DNA of 59,649 nucleotides from positions 1 through 59,649 of the forward strand of contig JAPLTJ010000144.1 in NCBI GenBank assembly GCA_026398175.1. Reading direction: 5' to 3'. Position numbers and translations under genes: made by a program. The stretch comes from Verrucomicrobiia bacterium. Its GTDB lineage: Bacteria; Verrucomicrobiota; Verrucomicrobiia; Chthoniobacterales; UBA6821. Below the pieces are notes generated by a model. That model was not told the origin of the DNA. It did no database searches and saw nothing but the letters and a program-made list of their open reading frames with translations. Of this stretch, positions 235 to 44,309 are shown in pieces; position 1 is the first letter of the stretch; each line of letters begins with the position of its first letter.

Positions 235-269
235 ACTCTTTACCCTTTACTCTTCACTCTTTACTTCTT
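235..269 (+). repeat. heptamer array H1 (type II, 5 units)
   Basis: ACTCTTT ACCCTTT ACTCTTC ACTCTTT ACTTCTT; ends 6 nt before uppP ATG. Confidence 0.9.
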
Positions 270-275
270 TCCATC

Positions 276-1133
276 ATGTTAAATTACTTCCAAATCCTCA
301 TCCTCGCCATCATCCAAGGTGCTTGCGAGCTCCTTCCTGTCTCTAGCTCAGCTCATGTCATCGTTGCTGAAAAGCTGATGGGGCTCAATCCATCAGCCCC
401 TGCGATGACCTTGCTCCTCGTCATGCTACACACAGGAACAATGTTTGCGGTGATTGTTTATTTTTGGAAATCGTGGAAGAGCGACTATTTTTCCTCTTGG
501 GAGAGGACCTGGTCTTTCACAAAACAAGTTCTCTTGGCCACGGCTTGTACTGGTGTCATTGGCTTAGGACTAAAAATTCTCATCGAAAAAATCGTCTTGC
601 GCGGAACCCCTCATGCCGAAGTCGAGATGCTTTTTTCTAATCTTCCATTGATTGCTACGGCTTTGGCCTCGGTCGGACTATTGATGATTTATGCCGGGAG
701 CCGCGAAGATCACGTGCCCACTCATTCCTCTCTCACTACAAAGCATTCTTTTTGGATCGGGTTGGTTCAAGGCCTCTGCCTTCCCTTCCGCGGCTTCTCT
801 CGCTCGGGCTCCACGATTTCAACAGGACTTCTTTTTGGTCTTCCTAAAAAAAAGGTCGAGGAATTTAGTTTTGCCCTAGCTGTGGTCCTCACTCCCATTG
901 TTCTTGCAAAAGAAACTCATCGATTGCTTCATGCTCCTGTCTTGAGCAACGATGCCATCTTGCATCATCTCTTCTTCCAGGGCCTCGTCGGCATGTTCTT
1001 TAGTTTTTTAGCAGGACTCGTTGCATTACGCTGGCTCTCTCGCTGCCTGGAAGAGGGACACTGGAAATTTTTTGGTTTTTACTGCCTCGTTGCAGCCGGT
1101 TTTATTTTTACGCTCAATAAGTTTTTCCTGTAA
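276..1133 (+). CDS. uppP: undecaprenyl-diphosphate phosphatase (BacA/UppP)
   Basis: 285-aa polytopic membrane ORF; N-terminal QGACELLPVSSSAHVIV matches the UppP E-x-LPVSSS-H signature. Confidence 0.9.
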   Translation: MLNYFQILILAIIQGACELLPVSSSAHVIVAEKLMGLNPSAPAMTLLLVMLHTGTMFAVIVYFWKSWKSDYFSSWERTWSFTKQVLLATACTGVIGLGLKILIEKIVLRGTPHAEVEMLFSNLPLIATALASVGLLMIYAGSREDHVPTHSSLTTKHSFWIGLVQGLCLPFRGFSRSGSTISTGLLFGLPKKKVEEFSFALAVVLTPIVLAKETHRLLHAPVLSNDAILHHLFFQGLVGMFFSFLAGLVALRWLSRCLEEGHWKFFGFYCLVAAGFIFTLNKFFL

Positions 1134-1161
1134 CCTGCTGCCTGCAGCCTGTAGCCTGTTC
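1134..1161 (+). repeat. heptamer array H2 (type I, 4 units)
   Basis: CCTGCTG CCTGCAG CCTGTAG CCTGTTC; starts right after uppP TAA, ends 2 nt before ATG 1164. Confidence 0.9.
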
Positions 1162-1163
1162 TA

Positions 1164-1595
1164 ATGAGTGCCGAAATCATTTCACCTGATCTTCAAGCAG
1201 CCGTCCTCTGCGAGGATGTACGCGCTGAAGCTAGCGGACAACAAACATTAATTGGTGTTCTCGGAGCCATCCCAACTTCTGTTGTCCCTATTGGTTTTTT
1301 GAAGCTCTGTTTTTGGACACGCTGGTGCGGTGGATTTGGCACTTTTTGTCAACGCACGTCGATTGTTGACCCTGACGAACAAGAGTCGATTGCTGAGACC
1401 TCCTTAAATTTCACGCTGAATCATATGCACGCTCATGCTACGAATGTTCATTTTTTTGGAAGGCTTCAATTCCAGCGCTTCGGCGTCTACCATATTGAAG
1501 TATACCTCGACAAGCAACTGCGCTTGCGCATTCCATTTCCTGTGATCAAAGTTGATCCTGAAAAAAACAATCTTATTTTGAGCAAAGGCGCTTGA
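1164..1595 (+). CDS. hypothetical protein (143 aa)
   Basis: Clean ORF starting 2 nt after a heptamer array that follows the uppP stop; no motif I can name. Confidence 0.55.
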   Translation: MSAEIISPDLQAAVLCEDVRAEASGQQTLIGVLGAIPTSVVPIGFLKLCFWTRWCGGFGTFCQRTSIVDPDEQESIAETSLNFTLNHMHAHATNVHFFGRLQFQRFGVYHIEVYLDKQLRLRIPFPVIKVDPEKNNLILSKGA

Positions 1596-1644
1596 CATCG
1601 TTTTGTTTTCCTCTACCTTATCACCTCTTTCCAATAATTTTCGA

Positions 1645-2067
1645 ATGAAGACTTTCTCTGCAAAAGCTAACGAGGTGAAACGCCAATGGTGGGTCATCGA
1701 TGCTAAAAATCAATACTTAGGCCATGTCGCTGTCAAAGCGGCAACGCTCCTTCGTGGTAAACATAAACCCATTTTTACTTCCCACGTTGATACTGGCGAC
1801 TTCGTCATCGTCATCAATGCCAAGGAAGTTCAAATCGGCGGCAAAAAAGAAACTCAAAAAACTTACATGAGTTTCTCAGGATTTGTTGGCGGCCATAAGT
1901 CGGAAACATTTCGTCAGCGTCGCGAACGCCGTCCCGAGTTACTTATTGAGAAAGCTGTTAAAGGAATGATCCCTCACAATCGCTTGGGAGCAACGATCTA
2001 CAGAAAACTTCGTGTTTATAGCGGTGCAGAACATCCTCACACTGTTCAAAAACCTCAAGCTATTTAA
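1645..2067 (+). CDS. rplM: 50S ribosomal protein L13
   Basis: MKTFSAKANEVKRQWWVIDA... typical L13 N-terminus; the ORF-track start 1603 is an upstream extension, ATG at 1645 fits. Confidence 0.93.
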   Translation: MKTFSAKANEVKRQWWVIDAKNQYLGHVAVKAATLLRGKHKPIFTSHVDTGDFVIVINAKEVQIGGKKETQKTYMSFSGFVGGHKSETFRQRRERRPELLIEKAVKGMIPHNRLGATIYRKLRVYSGAEHPHTVQKPQAI

Positions 2068-3460: not shown

Positions 3461-3566
3461 TTCACAGGGATGGAAGCGATGGAAGGGATAAAAAAATGGT
3501 ATAATTTAAAAATTAAACTTTAAAAGGCTGTTTTTTTAGCATCCCTTCCATCGCTTCCATCCCTGT
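3461..3566. mobile_element. palindromic element family A, copy A1 (short form)
   Basis: 26-bp perfect inverted arms ACAGGGATGGAAGCGATGGAAGGGAT (3464-3489 / 3541-3566) between convergent genes. Confidence 0.85.
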
Positions 3567-3590
3567 AAATTTTTTAATTTGTACCCGCCC

Positions 3591-4847
3591 TCACTCCTGA
3601 TACTCCACCAGCTGCTTCGGCTTAATGGTCATCAAGGAAATCAGAGCCAGCGCGGCAAAAAAGCAAATGTAAAGGGCCGGAACCCAAATGATGCCGGTAA
3701 CCTGCACAAGCCATGTTAAGATCATTTGGGTGCATCCGGTGATAATCCCAATACTGATGTTCCAAACAACAGCGACTCCTGTGTAACGCACCGAGACTGC
3801 GAAAAAGGAGCTCACCAAAACAGGAAAGCGCCCGCAAAGAACGCCAACAGCCAACAAGAGAAGGCTGTGCCAAAAAAAGATTTGATTAATATTCAATCTT
3901 CCGTAATTCCAAAAAAGAAGTAGCGCCGCAGCACCAATCCCCATAAAAAGAAAAAAGAAAAACTTTTTTCCCAACCTCTGATCAAAACTCCCTGCCAATA
4001 AAGACCCCACCATAAAAATCAAAAGACTATAGGAATTGAATTTCATTAATTGCTCCAACGGAAAATGATAAAAGGTAGAAAGGTAATTCGGAATGTAGTA
4101 GGTAAAGACAGCAATGCTACTGGACAAGAGAAATCCAATACCGATGAGTTGTAGTAGTGGCTTTTTATGCTGCTGGAAAAGCAATTTGATAGGAGTTGTT
4201 TCTTGTTGAAGACGATTTTTGTATTCCAGAAACGTTGGCGTCTCAACGAGCGCGCGACGCAAGACATAGCTGACAAGTCCCAAAATTCCTCCCAGCGCAA
4301 AAGCCACACGCCAACTCTCTCCACCGCTCCAATGAAATTTCATGAGCATCATGCAAGTGAAAGATGATACTAAAAGTCCAATGTTCGTCCCCATGATTAC
4401 AATGGAGGTATTGAAGGCCTTGCGCCCTGGACTTGACACTTCATAGCCAAAAATCACAGAACCTGGCAACTCTCCTCCCAAAGCAAGACTTTGAAGAATG
4501 CGAAGAGCAATTAACAAAATCGTTGCCCATGCCCCAATCACGCTAGCACTAGGAATGAAGGCAATCAAAAAAGTTGGCAGCGCCATTAACAAAATGGTGT
4601 AAACAAAAGTGTACTTCCGCCCACGCGTGTCCCCAAGATGCGCAAAGATCACTCCACCTAAAGGTCGGAACAAAGCTCCTGCTGCAAAAATGGCATAACT
4701 CAAGAGCAAATTGAGCCACGCATTGCTCGTAGGAATCAGGCTCTTTCCAATGAAGGGAGCCAGATAAATAAAAATTCCAAAATCGTAATACTCCAAGATC
4801 GAGCCAAGGCAGATGAGAAAGAGCAACTTTTTGCTGTCGAGTTTCAT
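3591..4847 (-). CDS. MFS transporter (metabolite:H+ symporter-like)
   Basis: 418 aa, about 12 hydrophobic segments, GDTRGRK loop 2-3 motif and N-terminal EYYDFGIF typical of the MHS/ProP-like subfamily. Confidence 0.85.
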   Translation of the reverse strand: MKLDSKKLLFLICLGSILEYYDFGIFIYLAPFIGKSLIPTSNAWLNLLLSYAIFAAGALFRPLGGVIFAHLGDTRGRKYTFVYTILLMALPTFLIAFIPSASVIGAWATILLIALRILQSLALGGELPGSVIFGYEVSSPGRKAFNTSIVIMGTNIGLLVSSFTCMMLMKFHWSGGESWRVAFALGGILGLVSYVLRRALVETPTFLEYKNRLQQETTPIKLLFQQHKKPLLQLIGIGFLLSSSIAVFTYYIPNYLSTFYHFPLEQLMKFNSYSLLIFMVGSLLAGSFDQRLGKKFFFFLFMGIGAAALLLFWNYGRLNINQIFFWHSLLLLAVGVLCGRFPVLVSSFFAVSVRYTGVAVVWNISIGIITGCTQMILTWLVQVTGIIWVPALYICFFAALALISLMTIKPKQLVEYQE

Positions 4848-4851
4848 GGCG

Positions 4852-4897
4852 ACAGGTTACAGGTTACAGGTTACAGGGTACAGGGTACAGGCTACAG
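4852..4897 (-). repeat. heptamer array H3 (type I, 6.5 units)
   Basis: Minus strand reads CTGTAGC CTGTACC x2 CTGTAAC x3; ends 4 nt before the MFS start (4847). Confidence 0.9.
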
Positions 4898-4922
4898 AAA
4901 AAATTTCGAATCCGAACACAAA

Positions 4923-5492
4923 ATGAAAATTTTTGAGGCACGCAATGAAATGGTCAGAGAACTCATTCCACTAGAAAGTGTGATTTGTGAAATTGGCGTT
5001 TTTAAAGGAGACTTCGCGAGTAAGTTGCACCAACTTCATCCCAAGCACCTCTTTCTCTGCGATCCTTGGGACAACGGCCTGAGTTATAGTGGGGATCATG
5101 ATGGCCAAAATGGAAACATCTATCATGCCTCTTCCCTCTACGAACATGTTGTTACCCTTTTTTCTCAAGAAGCAACAGTCTCCATTCATCGAGAAAAATC
5201 AGAAACTTTTATCCCGAAATTAGCTGATGCCTCGCTGGATGCAGCTTACGTTGATGGCGATCATTCTTACCAAGCTGTTAAAGCCGACCTTCATGCACTC
5301 TATCCTAAAATAAAAAAAGGAGGATTCCTCATGGGGCATGATTATGAATTCAATCCCAACAAGGCTCCATATGATTTAGAGCCGATGATCTTGGAAGTTG
5401 CGCGCGCCGTGAATGAATTTTGTCAGGAAAAAAATTTATCTATCTTTGCAAAAACGAACGATGGCTGTGCCAGCTTTGCGATTCGGTGCTAG
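4923..5492 (+). CDS. class I SAM-dependent methyltransferase (Methyltransf_24-like)
   Basis: EIGVFKGDF glycine-rich SAM loop and YVDGDHSY motif; stop TAG lies inside the terminal CTAG of repeat D1. Confidence 0.65.
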   Translation: MKIFEARNEMVRELIPLESVICEIGVFKGDFASKLHQLHPKHLFLCDPWDNGLSYSGDHDGQNGNIYHASSLYEHVVTLFSQEATVSIHREKSETFIPKLADASLDAAYVDGDHSYQAVKADLHALYPKIKKGGFLMGHDYEFNPNKAPYDLEPMILEVARAVNEFCQEKNLSIFAKTNDGCASFAIRC

Positions 5493-5798: not shown

Positions 5799-8195
5799 CT
5801 ATTCCGGAAGCTCTTCCCAAAAAGCCTGCGCTGCCCGTTCCCAATTTCGTTCGCTCACGCGTTGTCGGGCAGCAAGACCCCATGATATTCGTAAAGCCAC
5901 ATCATCAATCAAACGCTGCATCGCTTGTGTAAGCGCATCTAAATCGAGCGCCTTCGTAATCAAACCATCTTGCTCGTGCCCCACGAGATCTTTGGGTCCT
6001 CCAGCGTTGGAGACAATGGTAGGAAGACCACTTGCTTGCGCCTCGATCACCACATTACCAAAAGTATCGGTTGTACTCGGGAAAACAAAAAAATCGGCTG
6101 AGGCATAAGCCGTTGCGAGTTCTTCCCCCTGCAAAGTCCCAACAAAAATTCCCTCCGGCAGCAACTCTTTCATTGTCGAAAGATAAGGACCATTTCCAAC
6201 AAAAAGTGGTCGCACCTTCACTCCACGCGCCAGCAGCCGACGGAAAGCCGCGGCAAGCAGATCGAGATTTTTTTCTCGAGAGATCCGTCCCACATAGAGC
6301 GCCCCTACTTCTCCAGACTTCAATCCTCTTTTTTTCCAAAATTGAAGATCTCGTTTTTCTGGATGGAAGAAAACGGTGTCGAGGCCACGAGGCAAGATCC
6401 GAATTTTTTCTTCAGCCACTCCTCGCTCCATCCAGCAACGGCGATAATGCTCCGAATTGACATAGATCAAATCCATCTGCGAATAAAACCAGTGCATGAA
6501 ATTCCAAGTCAATGTCTCCATGAACCCATCCTCCGTGAGCATGCGCACATATTGAGGAAAATCGGTGTGATAAATTCCGATCGTTGGAAGCCCCAGTACT
6601 TTTGCTGCACAAAAGGCCGCAAGCCCCACAGGGCCTGGAGTACTGATGATCACCTCACTAAATTTTTCTCGCTCGAGATAATCGATCATCGGCAAGATCG
6701 GTGGAAAACTGAGTCGTTGCAACTCGTACTCTGGCAATTCAAAAGTACCGACGGGCTCAAAATTTTTGAATGGGATACCGAGATTGACGAGCTGTTCTCG
6801 AGAAACCATAACTGTTAAGTCATAACCAAGGGTTGTTGCAGCCGAAGCCATCTTTTGAATCGTGGTGGAGACGCCATTGATATCGTCGAGGGTATCGGTA
6901 AACCAAGCACGGCGGCGATGCTGAAAACTCGGAGGCAAATGCCCCCTCAAGGCTCTTGCTGCCTCGCGCAGACGTTGTAGTGGCGCACGATGAAAAGCAT
7001 AAAAATAAGGACTCAATATGGCTAGCAACGGAATGACGGGCCCCACTGTTTGGAGACTCTCCATGAACTTTCCTTCTTTTAACTGAGTTAGAAATTGCAT
7101 GACAAAGCGGTAGGCCAAACGACTCGCCAAAAGATTAGCAATTCCAAAAGCACGACGGCTCGGATCTTCCTCTCCTTTCGTCTGTCGCTCCAACTCAGCT
7201 CTCATCGAGGCAGTTGAAAGCGAGGCGGAAAGCTCTTTCCAAAGCGATCTATTTCCAGAACGAGCCAGCTCAAAAATTTTTCCACTCATCACTCCTTGCA
7301 TGAGAAAGCTCCATTTTTCGCCTGCCGAAAAAATGGTTGGATCGCGTCCCTCCATAAAACGTTCAAAAGCTTTCTCAACGAGTTTGAGTCCTAAACTCTC
7401 ACTCTTTCCCCGCAAGCGCTCCTGACCAAAAGAAAAAGCGACTTGATAGGTGTCTAACGCCATAGCGAGAGGAGTTCCATCATTTCCATAGGCCATTCCA
7501 TGGCCTTGGCGAAGCTGTTTAAAAAAATCGTTTGCTGTTTTTGCTGATGGAACAATCGTATAAGCCTTCCCCATCATGCGACCGCCATGATCATCAGAAC
7601 CACCAAAGAAATATTTTTTCCACGGTTCAAGATGCGTTGGCGAAATCTCTGTTTGAGCAGCAAATCGTTCGATATCGAGTGGAGTCAGGGTAAAGAAAAA
7701 GCGCGCCGCTTCGTTCAATAAAGCTGAACGCCGTCCATTTATCCCTTCGATATGTTGAAAGAGAAGCGCTGTTTTCATCAGGTGATGAGGTTGCAATTGG
7801 TCAATCAATCCCACCGCTGGTGCAGCAACACCATGTGCAATTTCTTGTTCCATCAAGTATTGCTGGAGCTCATAAATATTTTCTTTAAGCTGCTGGATCA
7901 TCCGATGCTGCTCCTCATTAATATTCCAAACGAGCAACGTCACGTGACATCCATCTTCGGGAAAAACAGCACTCACCTGCTCGCTGAGAAAGACACCGTC
8001 GAGATCAGCAATCTCAAGGCATCCTTCGATCGAGTCATAATCCGTAAAGGTGAAAAAATCCATTCCTGCCAGGCGCAATTTTTTATACAACTCACGCGGC
8101 TCTGACATGCTCGCAGGAACGCCAAGCCTTCTGAGCAGCCATTCTGAGGAGCGCTTGCTATAGCGTGTGTGAAGATGAAGATCGATTTTAGCCAT
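5799..8195 (-). CDS. PHP-domain / GT4 glycosyltransferase fusion protein
   Basis: N-terminus IDLHLHTRYS (PHP metal site); C-terminus GRISREKNLD...FVFPSTTDTFGNVVIEAQASGLP (GT4/GT-B E-x7-E region). Confidence 0.8.
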   Translation of the reverse strand: MAKIDLHLHTRYSKRSSEWLLRRLGVPASMSEPRELYKKLRLAGMDFFTFTDYDSIEGCLEIADLDGVFLSEQVSAVFPEDGCHVTLLVWNINEEQHRMIQQLKENIYELQQYLMEQEIAHGVAAPAVGLIDQLQPHHLMKTALLFQHIEGINGRRSALLNEAARFFFTLTPLDIERFAAQTEISPTHLEPWKKYFFGGSDDHGGRMMGKAYTIVPSAKTANDFFKQLRQGHGMAYGNDGTPLAMALDTYQVAFSFGQERLRGKSESLGLKLVEKAFERFMEGRDPTIFSAGEKWSFLMQGVMSGKIFELARSGNRSLWKELSASLSTASMRAELERQTKGEEDPSRRAFGIANLLASRLAYRFVMQFLTQLKEGKFMESLQTVGPVIPLLAILSPYFYAFHRAPLQRLREAARALRGHLPPSFQHRRRAWFTDTLDDINGVSTTIQKMASAATTLGYDLTVMVSREQLVNLGIPFKNFEPVGTFELPEYELQRLSFPPILPMIDYLEREKFSEVIISTPGPVGLAAFCAAKVLGLPTIGIYHTDFPQYVRMLTEDGFMETLTWNFMHWFYSQMDLIYVNSEHYRRCWMERGVAEEKIRILPRGLDTVFFHPEKRDLQFWKKRGLKSGEVGALYVGRISREKNLDLLAAAFRRLLARGVKVRPLFVGNGPYLSTMKELLPEGIFVGTLQGEELATAYASADFFVFPSTTDTFGNVVIEAQASGLPTIVSNAGGPKDLVGHEQDGLITKALDLDALTQAMQRLIDDVALRISWGLAARQRVSERNWERAAQAFWEELPE

Positions 8196-8202: not shown

Positions 8203-8251
8203 AGAGTAAAGGGTGAAGAGTCAAGGGTGAAGAGTCAAGGGTGAAGAGTAT
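8203..8251 (-). repeat. heptamer array H4 (type II, 7 units, 14-nt super-period)
   Basis: Plus strand AGAGTCAAGGGTGA x3; minus strand ACTCTTC ACCCTTG...; ends 7 nt before the PHP-GT start (8195). Confidence 0.9.
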
Positions 8252-10478: not shown

Positions 10479-11093
10479 ATGAATTTTCTGCGTTTCTTTT
10501 TAACTTTATTATTCTTAAGTCGTCTGGCATATAGCCAACAGCCCGCTCCCTATGAGCGCCATGAAGAATATCCATCACCAGACAAACAATATGTTGCTAA
10601 ATTGGTTATCAGAAATACAGAGACAATTTTAACGATTCAAAATCACTTAACCTCTAAAGATGATTTTTTAAAATCTCTTGTTCCTTGCGTACAAAATATT
10701 AAATGGACGCCTGATTCAAAATCATTATTTATCGTTTCTCATTTATCAGGAGGATCAATGGCCACCATTGTTCATTTCCAAAATGATGACTGGAGAGCTT
10801 ATGATAACAGTCCTCCTATACAAGGACCATCTTACTACTTTGTTGCAGGCGTTCACTTTTTTAAAAAATTTGCTAGGTTAATTTACGGAGTTTATCCTTC
10901 CAGGGGCAGCCCCTTCAATGAACAAAAAATGTGCATCTTTGATGTGGATTGGGATACCGGCTCTTCAAAATTAGTTAGCTTGAAATTTCCTTCGGAACAA
11001 GACCTCGATCAATTAACTAAAAAGGAAAAAAGAAAATGGGAAATGTGGGAGAACGGTACAGCTAACACGGAAATAAAAACAATTTATTTTTGA
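10479..11093 (+). CDS. secreted hypothetical protein, translationally coupled to 9721..10476
   Basis: ATG 2 nt after the upstream stop; N-terminal signal peptide MNFLRFFLTLLFLSRLAYS. Confidence 0.55.
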   Translation: MNFLRFFLTLLFLSRLAYSQQPAPYERHEEYPSPDKQYVAKLVIRNTETILTIQNHLTSKDDFLKSLVPCVQNIKWTPDSKSLFIVSHLSGGSMATIVHFQNDDWRAYDNSPPIQGPSYYFVAGVHFFKKFARLIYGVYPSRGSPFNEQKMCIFDVDWDTGSSKLVSLKFPSEQDLDQLTKKEKRKWEMWENGTANTEIKTIYF

Positions 11094-11918: not shown

Positions 11919-13982
11919 ATGTCCGATCAAAATCCATCTCTCAATAGCAATCTTCCTCCTCCACCAAAGCCATCAAGGGAAAACAAAGATCCTGATAACT
12001 CCATGAACTGGCGTGGGCTTATCTTTATCGTGATTGCACTTGGCCTGATTGCTGGGGCTTTTTTCTTCCGCGGAAATAATTTTATTCCCTCTGAAGAAAT
12101 TCCTCTTCCCAAATTTGAGTCTCTCCTCAAAGACGGAAAAATTATTTCCACCACGGACAAGCCGCTAGAACTTTTAGTTGAAGAGGGAAAAAACACACAG
12201 TCACTCAGCGGTTTCTATCGGAAAAAAGCAGCGACCGGCGCGGAAGAGATTGCGACACCTTTTAAAACAACCGTCTACATGCCATTCAACGGCACCACGC
12301 TTGAAAAGGAGCTCTTAGCAGCCGGCATCACGCCAACTCCCCGCGCTGAGTCAAATGCCTTCCTCTCCGCGGTGATGAGCTTTCTTCCAATTGTTCTCTT
12401 CCTTCTAGTCCTCTATTTCTTTTTCCGCTCTCAAATCAAAATGGCCGGCAAGAGCGCCATGGGCTTTGGAAAAAGCAAAGCGAAGATGTTAGCTCGTGAA
12501 AAAAATAAAATTACTTTTAAAGATGTCGCTGGCGTAGAAGAAGCTAAGGATGAAGTTCAAGAGCTGGTTGAGTTTTTAAAAGATCCAAAGCGTTTCCAAA
12601 AATTAGGCGGCCGCATTCCTAAAGGTGTCCTCATGATCGGCGCTCCAGGCACTGGAAAAACCTTGCTGGCCCGCGCCATTGCAGGAGAGGCCGATGTTCC
12701 TTTCTTCAACATTAGCGGTTCTGACTTTGTGGAAATGTTTGTGGGTGTTGGAGCCTCTCGTGTTCGCGATATGTTTGAACAAGGACGCAAATCGGCTCCC
12801 TGCCTCATTTTCATTGACGAGATCGATGCCGTCGGTCGTCACCGCGGTCATGGAATGGGTGGTGGTCATGATGAACGTGAGCAGACCCTCAACCAACTCT
12901 TGGTTGAGATGGATGGTTTTGATGCGCAAGAGGGAGTGATCATTATTGCTGCAACGAATCGCCCTGACGTCCTTGATCCGGCGCTCTTGCGCCCAGGCCG
13001 TTTTGATCGCCAAGTCACGATCAACCTTCCCGATGTCAAGGGCCGCGAAGAAATTTTGAAAGTCCATGCGAAAAAAATAAAACTAGCTGATAGCGTTGAT
13101 CTTTCCCGCATTGCTCGCGGCACCCCTGGCTACTCAGGAGCAGAATTGGCCAATGTGCTCAACGAAGCCGCTCTCATGGCAGCACGCAAAGGCCTCAAAG
13201 CGATCATGCAATTTGAATTAGAAGAAGCTCGCGATAAAGTTCGCTGGGGCAAAGAACGCCGCAGCATGGCGATGACAGAAAAAGAAAAAATGTCCACAGC
13301 CTGGCACGAAGCGGGGCATGCGCTACTCAACGTTGTTCTCGAACACACGCATCCACTGCACAAAGTCACCATCATTCCTCGCGGTCAATATTTGGGAGCT
13401 ACGATGTACCTTCCAGAAAACGATCAATATTCCACCCAGCGCAAAGAGGCTCTGGATGGGCTTGTCATGACGATGGGAGGTCGTATCGCTGAAGAGATGT
13501 TCACCGATGACGTTTCCAACGGCGCTGCTGGCGATATCGCACAAGCAACGAAGATGGCTCGGAAGATGGTTTGTGAATGGGGAATGAGCAGCCTCGGCAT
13601 GATTCGTTTTACCGAAGAGAGCGATTATATGTTCTTGGGCCGTGAAGTCTCTGGCAAGCGCGAGTACAGCGAATCAACAGCTCAAACAATCGATTCCGAA
13701 GTAAAACGCATCATCGATGAAGCTTACGCACGTGCTCAAAAAATCCTCGATGAAAAGCGAGACAAAGTCGCCCTCATTGCACAAGCCTTGTTGGAGTTTG
13801 AAACCTTGGAGGGAGCTCAAGTCGAAGATCTCATCAACCTCGGCCACATGAAAAATCCTCCCGTTATCGAGCAGAAGCCCCCGCCACTTCCGCCAGCTCC
13901 AACAGTGGTGACTGCGGAAGCATCAAAGCCAATACTTCCAGAGTTCCCGACCGGGGGTCTTGCAGCTCCGGTACCAGCGTAA
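11919..13982 (+). CDS. ftsH: ATP-dependent zinc metalloprotease FtsH
   Basis: Walker [12 protein letters not shown] region, HEAGHA zinc site, two N-terminal TM segments. Confidence 0.97.
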
Positions 13983-13999
13983 CAGGTTACAGGTTGCAG
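13983..13999 (-). repeat. heptamer array H5 (type I, 2.5 units)
   Basis: CAGGTTA CAGGTTG CAG begins immediately after ftsH TAA. Confidence 0.7.
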
Positions 14000-14009
14000 A
14001 AAAAAAGAT

Positions 14010-14066
14010 GGTTTCATAGATTTTTAAAAGCACGGTTTCATAGGTAACTCAGAGCACGGTTTCATA
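14010..14066 (+). promoter_or_regulatory. three direct GGTTTCATA boxes at exact 24-bp spacing upstream of the LolA-like gene
   Basis: 14010-14018, 14034-14042, 14058-14066; the last two extend to GCACGGTTTCATA; the last box ends 9 nt before ATG 14076. Confidence 0.4.
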
Positions 14067-14075
14067 TTTTTTTAG

Positions 14076-14771
14076 ATGTTCTTTTCGGCCACTCGTTACT
14101 CGTTACTCGTTACCCTTTACTCGCTGGCGATGCTCTGCACCGCCAGCGCTGAACCCTCTGCGGAAGACCTCCTCCGCGAGGCACGGCTTCGTCCGCCCAC
14201 TCATCCCATCACGCTTGCTGCAGAAATTCGTGGAGCGGAAGAACCGCTTCCGCTGACATTCAAAATTGGAAAAGGCCAGATTGAATATCAACTTCACGAT
14301 CCCGAAGAGACGATTGTTTTAAAATTGGGAACGACAAATTCTTCTCTCAGCGAAACAAAAAAAGGTATCACCAAGCTCGTTACTCAAGAAAAGCGATATC
14401 AAGAAATTCGCAACACTGGAGTGACCTACGACGATCTCTCGCTCGGTTTTCTTTATTGGCCTCATCCTCGCTTAGCTGGCACTCAGCAACTCCGTGGCAC
14501 CAAGGCTTCCATCATCGAGTTAATTCCACCCGCTGATGATCTTGGCCCCTACGGCTCGGCCCGCATCTGGATTGATCAAGCAAGTGGCGCTCCGCTGCGC
14601 ATGGAAGGTTTTGATAAAAATGGAAATCTTTTAAAACGCTTTGAAGTCATTTCCGCTCAAAAAATCGATGGCATCTGGACCCTCAAAGAAATGCGCATCG
14701 AAACCTTTAATTCCACAACCCACGCTGTCACTCAGCGGCGTTATCTCACGATTCATCGAGATAGTAAATAA
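14076..14771 (+). CDS. LolA-like outer-membrane lipoprotein-sorting protein (tentative)
   Basis: Signal peptide plus C-terminal RIWIDQASGAPLRMEGFDKNGNLLKRFEV...DGIWTLKEMRIE pattern seen in LolA_like proteins; residues 6-17 are encoded by a heptamer array. Confidence 0.55.
   Translation: MFFSATRYSLLVTLYSLAMLCTASAEPSAEDLLREARLRPPTHPITLAAEIRGAEEPLPLTFKIGKGQIEYQLHDPEETIVLKLGTTNSSLSETKKGITKLVTQEKRYQEIRNTGVTYDDLSLGFLYWPHPRLAGTQQLRGTKASIIELIPPADDLGPYGSARIWIDQASGAPLRMEGFDKNGNLLKRFEVISAQKIDGIWTLKEMRIETFNSTTHAVTQRRYLTIHRDSK
14091..14125 (+). repeat. heptamer array H6 (type II, 5 units) inside a coding region
   Basis: ACTCGTT x3 ACCCTTT ACTCGCT, translated as TRYSLLVTLYSL in the signal peptide of ORF 14076. 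Confidence 0.9.
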
Positions 14772-15162: not shown

Positions 15163-16440
15163 CTACTCACACCTCAAGGCCTTCACAGGGTCCATCCGCG
15201 AGGCCAGCCATGCTGGGATCAAGGCTGCAACGGAGCAGATGACAAAGGCGCTAATGCAGATCAAGGCAACATCACTCGTCACGACCTCGGCAGGGATTTG
15301 AGAAAATTGATAGACGGAGCGTGGAAAAATGTCGATTCCCAAGATTGAAGAGAGAGCATTACTCACTTCATTGCGCCAGCGGATCAGCGTCATCCCAAGC
15401 GCAAGCCCCGTGACGACACCAATAAAACCAACGACCATTCCTTGGACTAGAAAGATTCCGATGATTTGAGAGGTGCGAGCCCCAAGCGCCTTGAGAATGC
15501 CGATCTCACGCGTTTTCTGAACGGTCACCGTGATGAGCGTGTTCATAATTCCAAAAGCTGCGACTAAAATAATAAACATCAGCAAAAAAAACATCACGTG
15601 CCGCTCCATCGCAATCGCGTCAAAGAGTTGTTTGTTGGCGTCCATCCAAGTTGATACCGAAAAATCCTCAGGCAATTTCTGCCGAAGAGTCTGCTGCACG
15701 AGCGCAGCACGATCAGCATCATTCGTCCAGACAGCCATTCCATGAATGTTATCACCCAAGCCGTAGAGCTCTTGCCCGATGTGCAAGGGAACCAGCACGT
15801 ATTCACTATCGTATTGATAACGTCCCGTCTCAAAAATACCAGCGACCGTCAACTCGGTGGGCAAAACTAATTGTCGCAGCAAGTCGACATTAGCTTTTTC
15901 TTTGCCATTTTTCACGCGATCGAGCTCTTCGAGAATTTGATTCACATTGCGTGAAGAATAAATCGTAATTCGATCGCCGACTTGCAATCCCAGCAGGGAA
16001 GCCATTTCGGAGCCGATGAGAGCCGTATCCCCGCTCAAATCAAATGTTCCTTCTTTGATAAATTTTTTGAGGTTGGATTCTTTTTCAGCATCAATCCCAC
16101 GCATGATTGGAGTGATGCGGCGATGCTGAAACTCTAGAATGACGGGGCCTTGAACAAAAGGAGCAACCTTCTTAACTTCTGAAGTCGCTTCAATCGACTT
16201 GCTCAGTTTTTGCCAATGATCAAGGATCCCATCTTTGGAAATCGTAAGATGCGCATCGAAACCAATCACCTTGCGCTGCAGCTCGCGCTGGAATCCTGTC
16301 ATCACCGAAATCACTAAAATCAAAACCGTAATTCCTAACGTCACTCCCAACACCGAAACAAGCGTGATGACCGAAAGAAAAGCTCTTTTCGGTTTGAGGT
16401 AACGAGCAGCAAGAAAAAGGGAAGCGGACGGTCTGAACAT
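15163..16440 (-). CDS. lipoprotein-releasing ABC transporter permease (LolC/LolE family, FtsX domain)
   Basis: MFRPSASLFLAARYLKPKR... canonical LolC/E N-terminus at ATG 16440; the ORF-track extension to 16488 runs through a heptamer array. Confidence 0.85.
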   Translation of the reverse strand: MFRPSASLFLAARYLKPKRAFLSVITLVSVLGVTLGITVLILVISVMTGFQRELQRKVIGFDAHLTISKDGILDHWQKLSKSIEATSEVKKVAPFVQGPVILEFQHRRITPIMRGIDAEKESNLKKFIKEGTFDLSGDTALIGSEMASLLGLQVGDRITIYSSRNVNQILEELDRVKNGKEKANVDLLRQLVLPTELTVAGIFETGRYQYDSEYVLVPLHIGQELYGLGDNIHGMAVWTNDADRAALVQQTLRQKLPEDFSVSTWMDANKQLFDAIAMERHVMFFLLMFIILVAAFGIMNTLITVTVQKTREIGILKALGARTSQIIGIFLVQGMVVGFIGVVTGLALGMTLIRWRNEVSNALSSILGIDIFPRSVYQFSQIPAEVVTSDVALICISAFVICSVAALIPAWLASRMDPVKALRCE

Positions 16441-16475
16441 GAGTAATGAGTAACGGGTAACGAGTAACGGGTAAA
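16441..16475 (-). repeat. heptamer array H7 (type II, 5 units)
   Basis: Plus strand GAGTAAT GAGTAAC GGGTAAC GAGTAAC GGGTAAA; abuts the lolC/E ATG (16440). Confidence 0.9.
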
Positions 16476-16569: not shown

Positions 16570-16604
16570 ACGCTTTACTCGTTACCCGTTACTCGTTACT
16601 TTTT
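16570..16604 (+). repeat. heptamer array H8 (type II, 5 units)
   Basis: ACGCTTT ACTCGTT ACCCGTT ACTCGTT ACTTTTT; ends 2 nt before ATG 16607; inverted relative to H7. Confidence 0.9.
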
Positions 16605-20250: not shown

Positions 20251-20260
20251 TCTTTTGTCT

Positions 20261-21343: not shown

Positions 21344-21348
21344 TCTTC

Positions 21349-22056: not shown

Positions 22057-22062
22057 AGGAAA

Positions 22063-23565: not shown

Positions 23566-23571
23566 ATTTTA

Positions 23572-27254: not shown

Positions 27255-27401
27255 AACGTATAAATTTTTCCAGATGAATAAGAGGGCTCTCTTCTTTAGC
27301 AGAAAAAAGTCCCTCCCAAAAATATATTGGATTGATGAATATGACGCCCTATGAACAAATGGTCAATCTCGGAATAATTTTCTTTTCCCCAAGAAAATCA
27401 T

Positions 27402-27436
27402 TGTAACGAATAGCGAGTAACGAGTAATGAGTACTG
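27402..27436 (-). repeat. heptamer array H14 (type II, 5 units; the only start-proximal array in purine-rich orientation)
   Basis: TGTAACG AATAGCG AGTAACG AGTAATG AGTACTG; ends 3 nt before nth ATG. Confidence 0.85.
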
Positions 27437-28081: not shown

Positions 28082-28097
28082 CGGGTAACGAGTATTT
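28077..28097 (-). repeat. heptamer array H15 (type II, 3 units)
   Basis: AGTAACG GGTAACG AGTATTT; the nth stop TAA (28079-28081) is part of unit 1. Confidence 0.75.
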
Positions 28098-28186: not shown

Positions 28187-28214
28187 ACTCGTTACTCGTT
28201 ACCCTTTACTCGTT
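28187..28214 (+). repeat. heptamer array H16 (type II, 4 units)
   Basis: ACTCGTT x2 ACCCTTT ACTCGTT; contains the mqn-gene stop (28199-28201) and its last 4 codons; complementary to H15. Confidence 0.9.
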
Positions 28215-30074: not shown

Positions 30075-30590
30075 CCAAAAATAAATCAAATTTTTTTCCA
30101 AAATAAAAAAACACTACACCCAAACGTCATTCCAGCGAACCCTGGAATCCAGCGACTGTCGATCTTTATTTTTGTTCTCATAAAAGTTGTATAATACCAT
30201 CTCCCCAAAATAAATGGACTATAAGACGCTGGAAGTTTGGTGTTGAGCAAGGCGGAAGAGTGCAGCGCTATGCGAACATAACGCCAGATCTGACAACGAA
30301 GCTCAGCGCCAAAATAACAAGTCAGATGGTCCAGATCTGACAACGAAGCTCAGCGCCAAAATAACAAGTCAGATGGTCCAGTTATTTTAGGGAGATGGTA
30401 TAACGTCACAAAAGAAAGAAATGCTTTATTTTATAGAACCATCAATTCTGTATTGAAGGGCTCCTGGATTCCAGCGTCCGCTGGAATGACGCTAATGTGT
30501 GAGTGCAGATGAAATATGGATCAGAAGCGTTCTGAGTTCTGCCTTCGCGAGAATGAACTTTTTCTTCTATTGGTAGATTTTATTTTGGAC
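30075..30590. mobile_element. family B, copy B2 (full composite form, 516 bp)
   Basis: Outer inverted repeats CCAAAAATAAATC / GATTTTATTTTGG, inner GTCATTCC...GGAATGAC hairpin ends, inner ATACCATCTCC / GGAGATGGTAT; flanks shared with B4. Confidence 0.8.
30284..30381. repeat. 47-bp tandem duplication (2.1 copies) inside B2
   Basis: CCAGATCTGACAACGAAGCTCAGCGCCAAAATAACAAGTCAGATGGT at 30284-30330 and 30331-30377, identical. Confidence 0.95.
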
Positions 30591-30603
30591 AAAAGTGATT
30601 TTC

Positions 30604-32350: not shown

Positions 32351-32385
32351 ACAGGTTACAGGTTACAGGTCACAGGCTACAGGAA
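32351..32385 (-). repeat. heptamer array H17 (type I, 5 units)
   Basis: Plus strand ACAGGTT x2 ACAGGTC ACAGGCT ACAGGAA; 4 nt from the parA start (32346). Confidence 0.9.
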
Positions 32386-35950: not shown

Positions 35951-35985
35951 CTGTAGCCTGTAGCCTGTAGCCTGTAGCCTCTCTC
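35951..35985 (+). repeat. heptamer array H18 (type I, 4 perfect + 1 degenerate unit)
   Basis: CTGTAGC x4 CTCTCTC; ends 2 nt before ymdB ATG. Confidence 0.95.
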
Positions 35986-36780: not shown

Positions 36781-36811
36781 AATGATGAAAGATGATGAAA
36801 GATGATGAAAG
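36781..36811 (+). repeat. decamer array H19 (GATGATGAAA x3)
   Basis: Three 10-nt units between the ymdB stop and the left arm of repeat A4. Confidence 0.8.
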
Positions 36812-36813
36812 AA

Positions 36814-36963
36814 ATTCACAGGGATAGAAGCGATGGAAGGGATGAAGGCAAAAAAGATTGCCCTCTAAATTCGCTGAAATTTAAAAATCTTTTTTGTGTT
36901 AGTTTGCGCATTTCGAGGTTTATAAATTTCTTTATCCCTTCCATCGCTTCTATCCCTGTGAAT
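36814..36963 (+). mobile_element. family A, copy A4 (150 bp)
   Basis: Perfect 30-bp arms 36814-36843 / 36934-36963; fills the ymdB-ABC spacer. Confidence 0.9.
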
Positions 36964-36983
36964 TTCTTCCTTCTCTCACGTTC

Positions 36984-41881: not shown

Positions 41882-41886
41882 CATTC

Positions 41887-42768
41887 GTGAAGTCTCCTGT
41901 TTTTTCTAAAAGCAAGGCTTCCATTATTATTGTTGGCTGTGGCTTTCTTGGTAAAGCCACAGCTCAACTTTTTTCGGAGCAAGGTTATCGCGTGACTAGC
42001 ATTGTCAGCTCCGAAGCCTCTCGAGAAGAGCTTCTCAAAGGCCACCCTTCTTTTGACATCGTTGCTTGTGATATCACGAACAAAGCAGACGTTAAAAAAA
42101 ATTCACCCCAACTCCAAGCGGCTACCTTAATGGTTTATGCCGTGAGCTCTGGAAAAGGAAACGCCGAGGCCTATGCCGCCGTTTATCGTGATGGATTAAA
42201 AAATATCCTCGCTGCTTGGCAACCAGCTCATCTTATCTTTGTCAGTAGCACTTCTGTCTACGCGCAGACAAATGGAGAAATTGTCACTGAATCTTCTGAG
42301 ACAAAACCTGACCGCGCCACTAGTCAAGTCCTCCTTGAAGCCGAAGCGATCGCTCTTGCTGCAGGCGGCAGAGTTACCCGCTTCGCTGGAATTTATGGAC
42401 CTGGGAGATCGGTCCTTTTAAAAAAATTTCTCGCCAACGAAGCTCGACTAGAAGAAGGCGGCCATCGTTGGATCAACCAGATCCATCGCGACGACGGAGC
42501 TCAAGCACTCTATCATCTCGGAACTGCTGCAGCGCCTGCTGGCATTTACAACGTCACCGATGACACGCCTGCAACGCAGCGAGAAGTCTATCAATGGATG
42601 TCAGATTATTTACAACAACCATTGCCTCCGAGCGGTCCTGCAGATTTAAATCGCAAACGAGGATGGACCTCTAAGCGTGTTTCTAATAAAAAACTTCGTG
42701 CCACAGGATGGTCACCGCAATTTCCGAGCTACCGGGAAGCACTGCCGGAATTTTTGAAAAACAAATAA
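41887..42768 (+). CDS. NAD(P)-dependent epimerase/dehydratase-family (extended SDR) protein
   Basis: IIVGCGFLGKA Rossmann motif; GTG start; 293 aa. Confidence 0.7.
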   Translation: MKSPVFSKSKASIIIVGCGFLGKATAQLFSEQGYRVTSIVSSEASREELLKGHPSFDIVACDITNKADVKKNSPQLQAATLMVYAVSSGKGNAEAYAAVYRDGLKNILAAWQPAHLIFVSSTSVYAQTNGEIVTESSETKPDRATSQVLLEAEAIALAAGGRVTRFAGIYGPGRSVLLKKFLANEARLEEGGHRWINQIHRDDGAQALYHLGTAAAPAGIYNVTDDTPATQREVYQWMSDYLQQPLPPSGPADLNRKRGWTSKRVSNKKLRATGWSPQFPSYREALPEFLKNK

Positions 42769-42839
42769 CCACAAAAGAACACAAAGAGCACACAAAAAAA
42801 GAAAACTTAATTCTTTGCGTTCCTTGTGTTCTTTTGTGG
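42769..42839. repeat. family C, copy C2 (16-bp perfect stem)
   Basis: CCACAAAAGAACACAA (42769-42784) / TTGTGTTCTTTTGTGG (42824-42839), starts 1 nt after the SDR stop, followed by a T-rich run; terminator-like. Confidence 0.75.
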
Positions 42840-42888
42840 CTATTCTTCTTTTTTCCGTGTTCTTTTTCGGCTACTTTTTCTCAATCTC

Positions 42889-44268
42889 ATGAAACAGACA
42901 CTCTTAATCGTCGACGATGAAAAAAATACTCGTGATGGCTTAAAAGAAGCCATGAGTGATCATTTCGAGATCTACACCGCAGCCAATATCAAAGGAGCGC
43001 TCGCTGCACTGGACGGTGATCCAGCTGATGCCGTGATCACTGACCTCAAGTTGGCAGGAGAGAGCGGCATGGAGCTTTTAGAAAAAGTCCTCTCTCGTCC
43101 GAATCCTCCACCTTGCATCATGATGACCGCATACGGTTCCGTTGATACGGCTGTTGAAGCGATGAGGCGAGGAGCTTACGATTTTGTCACCAAGCCTGTA
43201 AATATTGAACGCCTCGAAATGCTCGTACGAAGAGCCTTGCGCGAACAGGCGACCGAAAAAGAAAATATTGAGTTGAAACAAGAAATCAACCAAAGCCATG
43301 GTCTAGAGCAAATGATCGGACACTCTTCTCCGATGATAGCTGTCTTTGATACGATTCGTCAGGTAGCTCCCTCCAAAGCAACGGTCCTCATTGAAGGTGA
43401 AAGCGGCACTGGAAAAGAAGTTGCTGCTCGCGCCATTCACGCACTCAGCACTCGCTCGAAGGAACGTTTTGTCGCCGTTCATTGCGCAGCTCTTTCTCCA
43501 CAGCTTCTCGAGAGTGAGCTTTTCGGCCATGAAAAAGGAGCCTTCACGGGTGCCACTGAACGCCGTATTGGCCGCTTTGAACAAGCTAGTGGCGGTACTT
43601 TGTTTTTAGATGAAATCGGCGAGATCGATCCAAGTGTTCAGGTCAAAATTTTGCGCGTTCTGGGTGAGCGGACTTTTGAACGTGTTGGAGGCAATCAAAC
43701 ATTAAGTACTGATGTTCGCCTCATCGCAGCAACGAATCGCAATCTTGAAGAAATGGTTACGGAGGGAACTTTTCGTGATGATCTTTTTTTTCGATTGAAG
43801 GTCGTTCCAATCTTGATGCCACCTCTGCGAGAGCGAAAAGAAGATATCCCTCTCCTCGTTGAATCTTTTTTAGTTGAGATCGCCAAAGAACATCAAAAAC
43901 CGTATCGTTCTTTTTCTTCCGAAGCCATCAACCTGCTCCTCAAATATTCTTGGCCGGGAAATGTGCGCGAACTGCGCACAGCCGTAGAACATGCCATCGT
44001 TTTAAGCCGCAACAAAGAATTACACGTTCTCGATCTACCTCTCGCTGTGCGCAAAGAAATAACAACATCATCCTTCACACCCAAAGCATCCTCCGATCTC
44101 AACTTAGAGCAAGTTGCCAGCACGATGATCGAGCGAGCACTAGAAGAATGTCACGGCAACCGCTCTCAAGCTGCGGAGAAGCTAGGTATCAGCCGGCGAA
44201 CACTCCATCGCAAACTTTCTGCAGAGAAAAGCAATAAATCACAAATAAAAAACCGCACTTCTCTTTGA
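42889..44268 (+). CDS. sigma-54-dependent response regulator (NtrC family: REC + AAA+ + Fis HTH)
   Basis: LLIVDDE...DLKL receiver, GESGTGKE Walker A, GAFTGA sigma-54 contact loop, C-terminal [17 protein letters not shown]. Confidence 0.93.
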
Positions 44269-44275
44269 TCTTTAC

Positions 44276-44309
44276 CCTGCAGCCTGTAGCCTGTAGCCTG
44301 TAGCCTTTT
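44276..44309 (+). repeat. heptamer array H20 (type I, 4 units + degenerate)
   Basis: CCTGCAG CCTGTAG x3 CCTTTTA; fills the spacer between the ntrC-like stop (44268) and dcd ATG (44310). Confidence 0.95.

Follow-up and report, generated by a model that had tools for sequence, protein, structure and literature searches.

Heptamer repeat arrays at the gene boundaries of a verrucomicrobial contig and their possible role in translation

Described heptamer repeats and the arrays of this window

Tandem repeats with a unit of seven nucleotides are reportedly known from cyanobacteria since 1990, when Mazel et al. described the short tandemly repeated repetitive (STRR) sequences, and Mrazek et al. are said to have found in 2007 that period 7 is over-represented among the long simple sequence repeats (SSRs) of prokaryotes. 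In this study, we analysed heptamer arrays in a 59,649-nt contig of a verrucomicrobium (JAPLTJ010000144.1, hereafter the window; 45% GC), where they lie directly before start codons and on or just past stop codons. According to the summaries of Mrazek 2007 in two later papers, heptamers are the most abundant class of long SSR in prokaryotes, and slippage was proposed as their origin (PMC4679880, PMC4692102).

The closest described system is the TAACTGA repeat of marine Beggiatoaceae. MacGregor (2015) found 169 sets of this heptamer in one Beggiatoaceae genome, mostly in forward orientation and ending about 1 nt before start codons (PMC4679880). The repeats also occur in some cyanobacteria and Bacteroidetes, and S1, Csp and CsrA were proposed as their binders (PMC4679880). 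The arrays of the window resemble them in the 7-nt unit (2-6 copies per set there), in the many dispersed sets, in forward sets within a few nucleotides of starts, in the overlap of some sets with the end of the upstream open reading frame (ORF), in the rarity of Shine-Dalgarno (SD) sequences and in downstream genes without a functional theme. The TAACTGA style of placement (forward, few nucleotides from the start, no SD) was found at 12 genes of the window, with gaps of 0-7 nt. However, the unit and the phylum are different, and the host studied here is almost wholly SD-free. Forward TAACTGA repeats carry stop codons in all frames, whereas our type II arrays (described below) carry none; one inverted pair was reported there versus several here, and conservation was analysed only for the present arrays. 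The window contains no TAACTGA array. Its closest unit, TAACCTG, differs from TAACTGA at 3 of 7 ungapped positions, with the TAAC start in common and the TG one base later.

The second system comprises the GGGAATC repeats of Xanthomonas and the GGGGA(C/T)T repeats of Nostoc, which are located near ORFs and for which Rehm et al. (2015) identified no function (PMC4692102). Most of the Xanthomonas repeats are transcribed, and phase variation was judged unlikely (PMC4692102). Like the arrays of the window, these SSRs are intergenic, adjoin ORFs and form inverted pairs, with about four units preferred there. Their purine/G-rich strand is the non-coding strand upstream of ORFs and the coding strand downstream, including overlaps with stop codons, and related species carry them between the same genes, in forms that vary in length and sequence. 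In contrast, their gaps to start codons average ~28 nt versus 0-7 nt here, and they form G-quadruplexes and i-motifs, whereas the present units hold GG at most and cannot. A case without G-quadruplex potential thus removes this structure as the general explanation of the common polarity. In addition, a Nostoc preprint reports that heptamers at most 30 nt from start codons alter reporter output.

A preliminary description of the window had stated that no described element class was known to combine a 7-nt period, abutment on start codons and an orientation bias. This is refuted by the two papers, since one reports start-abutting, SD-less heptamers (PMC4679880) and the other the same polarity rule (PMC4692102). 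Tandem repetition in at least three copies, dispersal, polarity at gene boundaries and persistence in synteny, the four characters of the long SSR/STRR-like class, were all found here. Like STRR and long SSRs, the arrays are dispersed, mostly intergenic tandem heptanucleotides with lineage-specific units. They are not STRR in the strict sense, as STRR1-3 (CCCCAGT, TTGGTCA, CAACAGT) have other units and belong to heterocystous cyanobacteria, whereas the present host belongs to the Verrucomicrobiota. This phylum was not found among the lineages described with heptamer repeats in the literature searched. The class is therefore a described one; the phylum, the units and the comparative evidence for selection are new. 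A phylum is thus added to repeats that have been known since 1990 and were left without a function in the surveys of 2007 and 2015.

Arrays at start and stop codons and their conservation

The host is an uncultured soil/freshwater verrucomicrobium whose FtsH is at most 72% identical to that of any GTDB species representative. The best FtsH matches came from metagenome-assembled genomes (MAGs) of Spartobacteria, Chthoniobacterales and Terrimicrobiaceae. The window has 48 gene calls, checked in part with NCBIfam, and 13.7% of it is intergenic DNA. We found that Logan contig SRR20698642 is 100% identical to the window across 5.7 kb, indicating that the arrays do not stem from an error in one assembly.

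We identified 19 period-7 sites within 44 kb, with two main unit types, and one 10-nt array; all 20 coordinates given by the preliminary description were borne out by the sequence, and 10 of the arrays passed a strict scan. Of the 19 heptamer sites, Tandem Repeats Finder (TRF) assigned 14 to period 7 (3.3-6.6 copies) and the array at 8203 to period 14, and it reported 3.1 perfect 10-nt copies at 36782-36812. Four sites fell under the TRF threshold, two of them short (13983 and 28077, ~2.5 units each) and two degenerate (23089 and 23198, termed type III). In the strict autocorrelation scan of the window, 10 arrays were detected at period 7, one each at periods 10 and 14, and none at periods 4-6, 8, 9 and 11-13. 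First-order Markov resamples gave an expectation of 0.0 strict period-7 arrays. Thirteen of the 19 arrays are wholly intergenic, five overlap only an ORF end and one is wholly within an ORF.

The units of types I and II can be written in a common register, T-A-N-Y-C-K-K (TAACCTG, TAGCCTG, TACTCTT, TACCCTT, TACTCGT). In this register, the two types agree at 5 of 7 positions and are thus related. The units are not enriched as singletons, since 10 isolated units were found outside arrays versus ~20 expected for the whole window. Some arrays at unlinked loci are near-copies: those of uppP and truB have unit order and flanks in common, and a 5' T-run is common to the type I arrays. Local slippage alone therefore does not explain the dispersal.

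We found that 12 of the 19 arrays (class A) stop 0-7 nt short of an annotated ATG, with their pyrimidine-rich strand in the mRNA sense. Under random placement, such abutment has a probability of 0.018 per array (binomial P = 6e-17). Thirteen arrays at this distance had been counted before, and the count is correct when the array at 27402 is included, which lies 6 nt before the nth ATG with its purine strand in the mRNA sense and is the sole exception to the polarity. We left this array and its upstream ORF (uORF) out of the start-codon count and outside both classes; the uORF was not counted because it overlaps a hairpin. The fourteenth start-proximal array, at 14091, was confirmed to lie just inside ORF 14076. 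It probably encodes the hydrophobic core of the signal peptide of a lipoprotein (MFFSATRYSLLVTLYSLAMLC), since an alignment with the sister species is possible around the lipobox Cys.

The second group (class B) comprises purine-rich arrays in the mRNA sense, located on or just past the stops of infB, rbfA, nth, mqnC and ftsH (5/5). The earlier placement of arrays at stop codons was confirmed. The uppP stop is inside the array at 1127, the nth, mqnC and rbfA stops are inside units, and the ftsH array directly follows the TAA. The array downstream of infB, which had been placed within 0-3 nt of the stop, is separated from it by 6 nt according to our boundaries.

Some Verrucomicrobia have already been labelled 'SD-scarce' (PMC10783764). 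In the window, an SD match of at least 4 nt was found in only 2 of 36 array-free genes, and at none of the 12 start-proximal array genes. It is true that the arrays leave no room for an SD sequence, as had been pointed out, but this is not distinctive, because array-free genes also hardly use SD. For the same reason, the idea that the arrays replace the SD sequence is moot in a lineage that barely uses it. The array leaders consist of 72% pyrimidine versus 52% at other genes, and the predicted unpaired probability around the start is 0.70 versus 0.57 (P = 0.008). The array-led genes are uppP, an unknown ORF, an MFS transporter gene, a PHP/GT4 glycosyltransferase gene, lolC/E, a gene for a pgaC-like enzyme, truB, nrnA, rbfA, parA, a YmdB-like phosphoesterase gene and dcd. 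These 12 are housekeeping genes without a common functional theme.

Syntenic contigs of relatives were found via RbfA and GT4 homologues (L082, L089, L090, L091 and L212-L216). The coding DNA of the sister species, represented by L082, is 88.7% identical to that of the window, and 70.9% identical at 2125 fourfold sites. Nevertheless, the arrays common to both are identical at 164 of 168 positions (97.6%). The spacer between rimI and parA is identical at 53/53 positions without indels and that between lolC and pgaC at 166/166 positions with one 7-nt indel. The nth-mqnC spacer is identical at 98/102 positions with two 7-nt indels (one per arm) and a 1-nt gap in the spacer A-run, and the nusA-nth spacer at 174/185 positions without indels. 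In the first 90 nt of the flanking genes, identity is back down to 87-94%. This drop at the start codons suggests that the identity of the arrays reflects constraint and not a recent recombination tract.

Where arrays differ between relatives, they do so by whole units or by replacement. The lolC/E array (34/34) and the parA array are identical in the sister species, and the pgaC leader array has 7 nt (one unit) more there but is otherwise identical. The arms at nth and mqnC are each one unit (7 nt) shorter in the sister species, indicating that both arms of a predicted stem changed together. At truB, the (ACTCTTT)n leader of the window corresponds to a (TCAACTT)n-like array in the sister species and to a degenerate ACTT repeat in L089. 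The sister species lacks the infB/rbfA and rbfA/nrnA array pairs; its spacers contain a different hairpin and a 9-mer repeat instead. The leader of GT4 has 6.7 units in the window versus 4.7 in relatives with 97% amino acid identity, a pyrimidine-rich 9-mer array in relatives with 86-89% identity and another heptamer (ACTAAGA) in a relative with 77%. Similarly, the MFS leader has 6.6 units here versus 4.6 in the contig of a 97% relative (the identity being that of the adjacent GT4 gene), a type I/type II hybrid in an 86% relative and a 9-mer array in an 89% relative. At parA, three species have a type I array with its T-run, and the array is kept with altered units in a relative whose RbfA is 81% identical. 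In the distant relatives (51-72% FtsH identity), we mostly found no arrays, or other heptamers that often form hairpins as inverted pairs.

The arrays thus arise and change by whole-unit slippage and by copying between loci. The preliminary description had proposed a comparison of unit copy number between strains. Whole-unit differences were indeed found between relatives, but none among contigs of the sister species (L082-L088), where five array or repeat regions, two of them orthologous to window arrays, were identical in all 2-7 spanning contigs from different samples. The conservation, the change by whole units (sometimes in both arms) and the presence of different 7-mers or 9-mers at the same start together speak for selection on the arrays as cis-elements of gene boundaries and against their being junk.

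To obtain an independent sample, metagenomes were scanned for the type II unit TTACYCKTTACYCKTTAC, which matched more than 120 contigs of 26-69% GC. The sample is heterogeneous, and some matches resemble eukaryotic telomere-like repeats. Arrays on the purine strand started at the stop of an ORF of at least 80 codons in 26 of 74 cases, versus 4 of 71 on the opposite strand (P = 9e-6). Arrays on the pyrimidine strand adjoined the ATG of a long ORF in 8 of 74 cases versus 2 of 71. The same bias in these metagenome arrays (80 loci) shows that the polarity rule is general. Outside this lineage, arrays near stops are more common than those near starts. We also considered whether the type II unit is taxonomically restricted, which the range of GC content among the matching contigs rules out.

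Heptamer arrays with unrelated units (AACTTAA, ACCTGAG, GCTCGAA, GGTCAGT) were also observed in other Verrucomicrobiota and in Acidobacteriota, namely in L014 (~4760-4845), L071 (16832-16870 and 17580-17665), L066 (~15640-15714) and L216 (upstream of gene 3985-5091). They are often inverted pairs with long predicted hairpins, and the L066 array adjoins an ATG.

Possible functions and origins of the arrays

We tentatively favour the reading that the arrays are transcribed modules of 5' leaders and 3' trailers, in which the pyrimidine array may serve as an unstructured, sequence-specifically read platform for SD-independent initiation. An SD-independent leader and a binding array for an RNA/ssDNA-binding protein were among the options raised in the preliminary description, and they are the best-supported ones, in view of the polarity, the initiation regions predicted to be more open, the constraint and the persistence at the same starts. 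Arrays that fill co-directional spacers of 30-60 nt (uppP-orf1164, nrnA-truB, rimI-parA and before dcd) most probably lie in polycistronic mRNA, which argues for a role at the RNA level. SD-independent enhancers such as the omega leader of tobacco mosaic virus (TMV), the T7 gene 10 epsilon element and AU-rich leaders are bound by S1, are direct-repeat or pyrimidine/AU-rich, unstructured and G-poor, and lie 5' of the start. Enhancers of the TMV omega and T7 epsilon type are single viral or engineered leaders, whereas the arrays are a genome-wide repeat family that is likened to them by these leader features.

As the proximal 5' leader, the pyrimidine array would keep the start codon accessible, because direct repeats poor in G cannot fold back on themselves. 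SD-independent initiation chiefly requires an open start region. The conservation of the arrays at the nucleotide level suggests a sequence-specific reader, and a single-strand binder such as ribosomal protein S1 or a cold-shock-domain (CSD) protein could fill this role. The cold-shock domain of CspB binds a pyrimidine-rich heptanucleotide with the consensus GTCTTTG/T (PMC1904285). The rotated type II unit CTCTTTA agrees with this site at 5 of 7 positions, including C3 and T2/T4/T6, which is a resemblance only. At the upstream stop, a purine array would pair with the leader array over 16-28 bp and hide it, and a terminating ribosome or an RNase would open the stem, resulting in translational coupling or processing.

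A bolder form of this proposal, which we consider speculative and rather doubtful, is that pyrimidine arrays in SD-scarce bacteria could be an alternative signal for ribosome recruitment, read by an OB-fold binder (CSD or S1) in a 7-nt register, with the purine arrays at stop codons acting as anti-leaders that couple downstream initiation to upstream termination. One monomer or domain would then bind per 7-nt unit. If SD-independent initiation or coupling is confirmed, the arrays would explain how translation starts in poorly studied bacteria and would provide portable leader parts. If the recruitment signal in a 7-nt register is confirmed, the heptamer repeats of cyanobacteria, Xanthomonas and Beggiatoaceae, so far unexplained, would gain a function.

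Several observations weigh against the leader reading. Array-free genes of the lineage also initiate without SD, so the arrays are not required for initiation. Conservation at the nucleotide level is not predicted by a purely unstructured leader, nor is the replacement by 9-mers in relatives predicted by a strict 7-nt protein footprint. The non-repeat parts of the array spacers are kept as strongly as the arrays, and this constraint may reflect a promoter or operator rather than a leader. Partnerless purine arrays at stops, as at ftsH, have no role in the model. The published polarity holds regardless of gene orientation and could have a DNA-level or mutational cause. Finally, a search of the window for csp genes found none.

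Alternatively, the arrays could be near-neutral products of polymerase slippage. Slippage by 7 nt would be mutationally favoured in bacteria, and its products would survive only where they are harmless, just outside ORFs, with no function of their own; the polarity would arise if the surviving orientation avoids purine motifs upstream of genes that resemble SD sequences or starts. This origin, proposed for heptamers as the most abundant long SSR class according to the summaries of Mrazek 2007 (PMC4679880, PMC4692102), agrees with several of our results. Most relatives at ~70% FtsH identity have no arrays, several arrays are missing or replaced in the sister species, the changes occur in whole units, and the array genes have no common theme. 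However, we consider slippage without function unlikely, as the identity of the common arrays (97.6%) exceeds that of fourfold sites (70.9%), and the arrays persist at the same starts through complete unit turnover. Also, unit families recur at unlinked loci, in the case of uppP and truB even in the same order of units, which is unexpected from independent local slippage.

Another explanation is based on paired arrays. In five spacers, a purine array on the left and a pyrimidine array on the right lie ~70-100 nt apart. The purine-sense type II array at 23702-23733 (-), which starts 6 nt past the infB TGA stop, is the 5' arm of a predicted ~28-bp stem (-62 kcal/mol, z = -4.5) whose 3' arm is the type II leader array of rbfA at 23570-23600 (-), 4 nt from the ATG. 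The second predicted stem (z = -3.7) is formed by the only type III arrays of the window. Its 5' arm at 23198-23230 (-) is purine-sense and holds the last rbfA codons and the TAA stop, and its 3' arm at 23089-23125 (-) is a degenerate pyrimidine array in the nrnA leader, 3 nt from the ATG. A predicted 16-bp stem connects the short purine-sense type II array at 28077-28094 (+; 2.5 units), which holds the nth TAA stop, with the type II array at 28187-28216 (-), purine-sense for the convergent gene mqnC and holding its stop. A fourth such pair was found in the sister species between ribF and pgaC. We compared the loops between paired arms and found no similarity.

These pairs could be palindromic elements resembling repetitive extragenic palindromes (REP) or miniature inverted-repeat transposable elements (MITEs), with heptamer arrays as arms, acting as 3'-end stabilisers, terminators or RNase III sites; the single arrays would be half-elements. 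Like REP, bacterial interspersed mosaic elements (BIME) and MITE-like elements, the pairs are dispersed intergenic inverted repeats with mRNA stems, often between convergent genes or at 3' ends. This reading is consistent with the five paired spacers and with the type III arms, which are paired at different loci in the two species (rbfA/nrnA in the window, ribF/pgaC in L082) and give the same ...QAED-stop end. It also agrees with a second, 9-nt-periodic palindromic family of ~165 nt in four copies and with the inverted heptamer repeats of Xanthomonas (PMC4692102). Nevertheless, we regard it as improbable. Unlike such elements, most arrays here are unpaired direct repeats at 5' ends, and the orientation rule is obeyed also by the 8 of 12 start-proximal arrays that lack a partner. 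The 3' arms are not followed by a T-run, and no terminator-like sites were found; sigma-70 and terminator scans of three array regions gave no sites near the arrays. The MITE idea was rejected, as the spacers between paired arrays have no similarity and a conserved core was not found. As an observation on the type III arrays, the same C-terminal tail and stop (...Q-A-E-D-TAA) is supplied to two unrelated genes, rbfA (window 23215-23230) and the pgaC-like gene (L082 ~13519-13527). The array-supplied tail and stop account for the length of RbfA, 116 aa in the window versus 120 aa in the sister species.

A signal at the DNA level is likewise improbable. A minimal -10-like hexamer (TAnnnT) is present on the non-template strand of most units. 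The arrays would be tandem hexamers of this kind for leaderless or near-leaderless transcripts, sites of sigma-dependent promoter-proximal pausing or operators of a DNA-binding regulator. Counted back from the ATG, the last full TA-unit begins at 12-13 nt in 9 of the 12 start-proximal arrays, which is the geometry of a -10 element for a transcript whose first base is the A of the ATG, and arrays and adjacent spacers are equally conserved. Moreover, a sigma-70 scan found no promoter upstream of the arrays at the lolC/pgaC and YmdB-like first genes, and it found sites before uppP. However, in about half of the type II units (TACTCGT, TACCCGT) the hexamer does not end in T, no TAnnnT was seen at -12 to -7 of array-free genes, and the -12/-13 phase is scattered in the independent metagenome examples; the leaderless -10 idea was downgraded on these three grounds. 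In addition, arrays are located in operon-internal spacers and at stops, where a promoter would fire antisense, and the variable unit number shifts the upstream T-run relative to the ATG.

A further suggestion of the preliminary description was that the arrays insulate genes, ending stray or read-through translation before the next start by stop codons in all frames. Its frame arithmetic is correct: each of the three sense frames of type I arrays contains TAG/TAA, and purine-sense type II arrays have TAA in all three frames. The real stops of nth, mqnC and rbfA are supplied by arrays, and 26 of 74 purine-strand arrays in the metagenomes end a long ORF. Yet insulation cannot be general, as the type II arrays upstream of starts, which are the majority, have no stop on the sense strand, and one type II array is probably translated within ORF 14076. 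The unit types carry stops on opposite strands but obey the same polarity, indicating that stop content does not set the orientation. We therefore consider an insulator very improbable.

The least credible explanation is that the arrays are contingency loci, in which a change of copy number switches expression, since, despite whole-unit differences between close relatives and several Logan contigs that end ~160 nt past rbfA in the repeat-rich spacer, the genes concerned are housekeeping genes (uppP, truB, rbfA, parA, dcd, lolC), the arrays lie outside the ORF, an SD-less leader has no spacing-sensitive element to tune, and no length differences were found among the 2-7 sister-species contigs spanning each tested region, from different samples, so that phase variation was rejected. 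The contingency loci of Haemophilus, Neisseria and Moraxella are similar in their short tandem repeats and whole-unit changes and lie between promoter and start, but their units are shorter than those of the present arrays. The same housekeeping genes and invariant contigs, with changes only between species or strains, speak against the slipped-strand variable spacer that had also been suggested.

Individual arrays and other repeats of the window

The first array of the window, at 235-270 (+), is a type II array (ACTCTTT/ACCCTTT, ~5 units) in the uppP leader and ends 5 nt before ATG 276. Upstream of it, positions 1-234 contain five weak sigma-70-like matches (TTGAAA/TTGACA ... CATCAT) versus 0.8 expected, which reflect a loosely repeated motif, GAAAA..CATCAT. 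Downstream of uppP, the type I array (CCTGTAR, ~4.7 units) at 1127-1159 (+) fills the 30-nt uppP-orf1164 spacer, includes the TAA stop of uppP and leaves 4 nt to ATG 1164. Four other leaders have type I arrays. At 4852-4897 (-), 6.6 units preceded by a T-run lie 4 nt from the ATG of the MFS gene (3591-4847), and at 32351-32383 (-), 4.7 units, also with a T-run before them, lie 4 nt from the parA ATG. A perfect array of 4.3 units with a preceding T-run at 35951-35980 (+) lies 7 nt from ATG 35988 of the TIGR00282 (YmdB-like) phosphoesterase gene. The dcd (dCTP deaminase) leader holds 4.4 units at 44276-44306 (+), 3 nt from ATG 44310 in a 41-nt co-directional spacer.

Apart from the rbfA and nrnA arrays described above, the remaining leader arrays are of type II. 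The array at 8203-8249 (-) has a 14-nt super-unit (~6.7 units in all) and lies 7 nt from the ATG of the PHP/GT4 gene (5799-8195). The lolC/E leader array at 16441-16474 (-; 4.9 units) has a gap of 0 nt to the ATG at 16440, and the array at 16570-16600 (+) lies 6 nt from ATG 16607 of the pgaC-like deacetylase/glycosyltransferase gene. The truB leader array (22061-22096, -; 5.1 units) is separated from its ATG by 4 nt.

At ftsH, a short purine-sense type I array (13983-14002, +; ~2.5 units and an A-run) starts immediately past the TAA stop. It is followed at 14026-14075 by three direct repeats of GCACGGTTTCATA, ~24 nt apart, upstream of the TP_0789-like lipoprotein gene. In the equivalent place of L082 (18841-18890), we found a 23-nt repeat in 2.2 copies with a similar core (GGTTTCGTGCC). 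Both repeats look like operators. The type II array within ORF 14076-14771 spans 14091-14123 (+) and has 4.7 units.

The exceptional type II array at 27402-27433 (-) shows its purine strand in the sense of nth (6 nt to ATG 27440) and its pyrimidine strand towards nusA. On the nusA side, it adjoins an ATG that precedes a hairpin or 12-codon ORF; the array is conserved in three species. The nusA leader itself (27255-27401, in the nusA-nth spacer) is 95% identical to that of the sister species versus 71% at fourfold sites. It contains a hairpin (ATTTTCTT-GGGGA-AAGAAAAT), a possible 12-codon ORF (MIFLGKRKLFRD) and a GGGAGGG...CCCTC stem, and it may be an attenuator for the autoregulation of NusA.

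The last 15 kb of the window (44310-59649) hold no heptamer array despite about a dozen gene starts. An Rfam scan of the whole window gave 0 matches at or above the gathering score, and ARAGORN found no tRNA or tmRNA in the whole window.

The 10-nt array at 36782-36812 (+), (ATGATGAAAG)x3, is purine-rich, lies just past the stop of the YmdB-like gene and adjoins a palindromic element with a 9-nt period. This dispersed element of ~165 nt is present in four copies (3462-3575, 20090-20255, 21193-21345 and 36811-36965), which are located between convergent genes or just upstream of starts (ribF, gene 36984). Its arms have a period of 9 nt (TTCACAGGGATGGAAGCGATGGAAGGGAT ... ATCCCTTCCATCGCTTCCATCCCTGTGAA), and copies in L082 have arms that differ by 9-nt steps.

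We found a third repeat family, with a period of 9-11 nt, in a purine form (CACAAAAGAA, AAAGAACGC) and a pyrimidine form (CTTTGCGTT, TTGTTCTTT). Its sites are 42761-42797 in the window, 10512-10534, 18493-18521 and 20141-20164 in L082, and leaders in L090, L214 and L215. In relatives, this family stands at the start-proximal positions (GT4, MFS and rbfA leaders) where the window has heptamer arrays. The GTG start annotated at 42826 lies inside an arm of this family and may be wrong.

Two longer tandem repeats were observed. A 126-nt duplication (47329-47580; 2.0 copies, 99% identical) lies in frame inside ORF 47106-47816 and corresponds to 42 aa. A perfect 47-nt repeat in 2.1 copies (30284-30381) lies in the 480-nt spacer 30124-30603 and is flanked by REP-like palindromes (CGTCATTCCAGCG..CCTGGAATCCAGCG) at ~30125-30160 and 30463-30495, which also occur upstream of genes 2865 and 33085.

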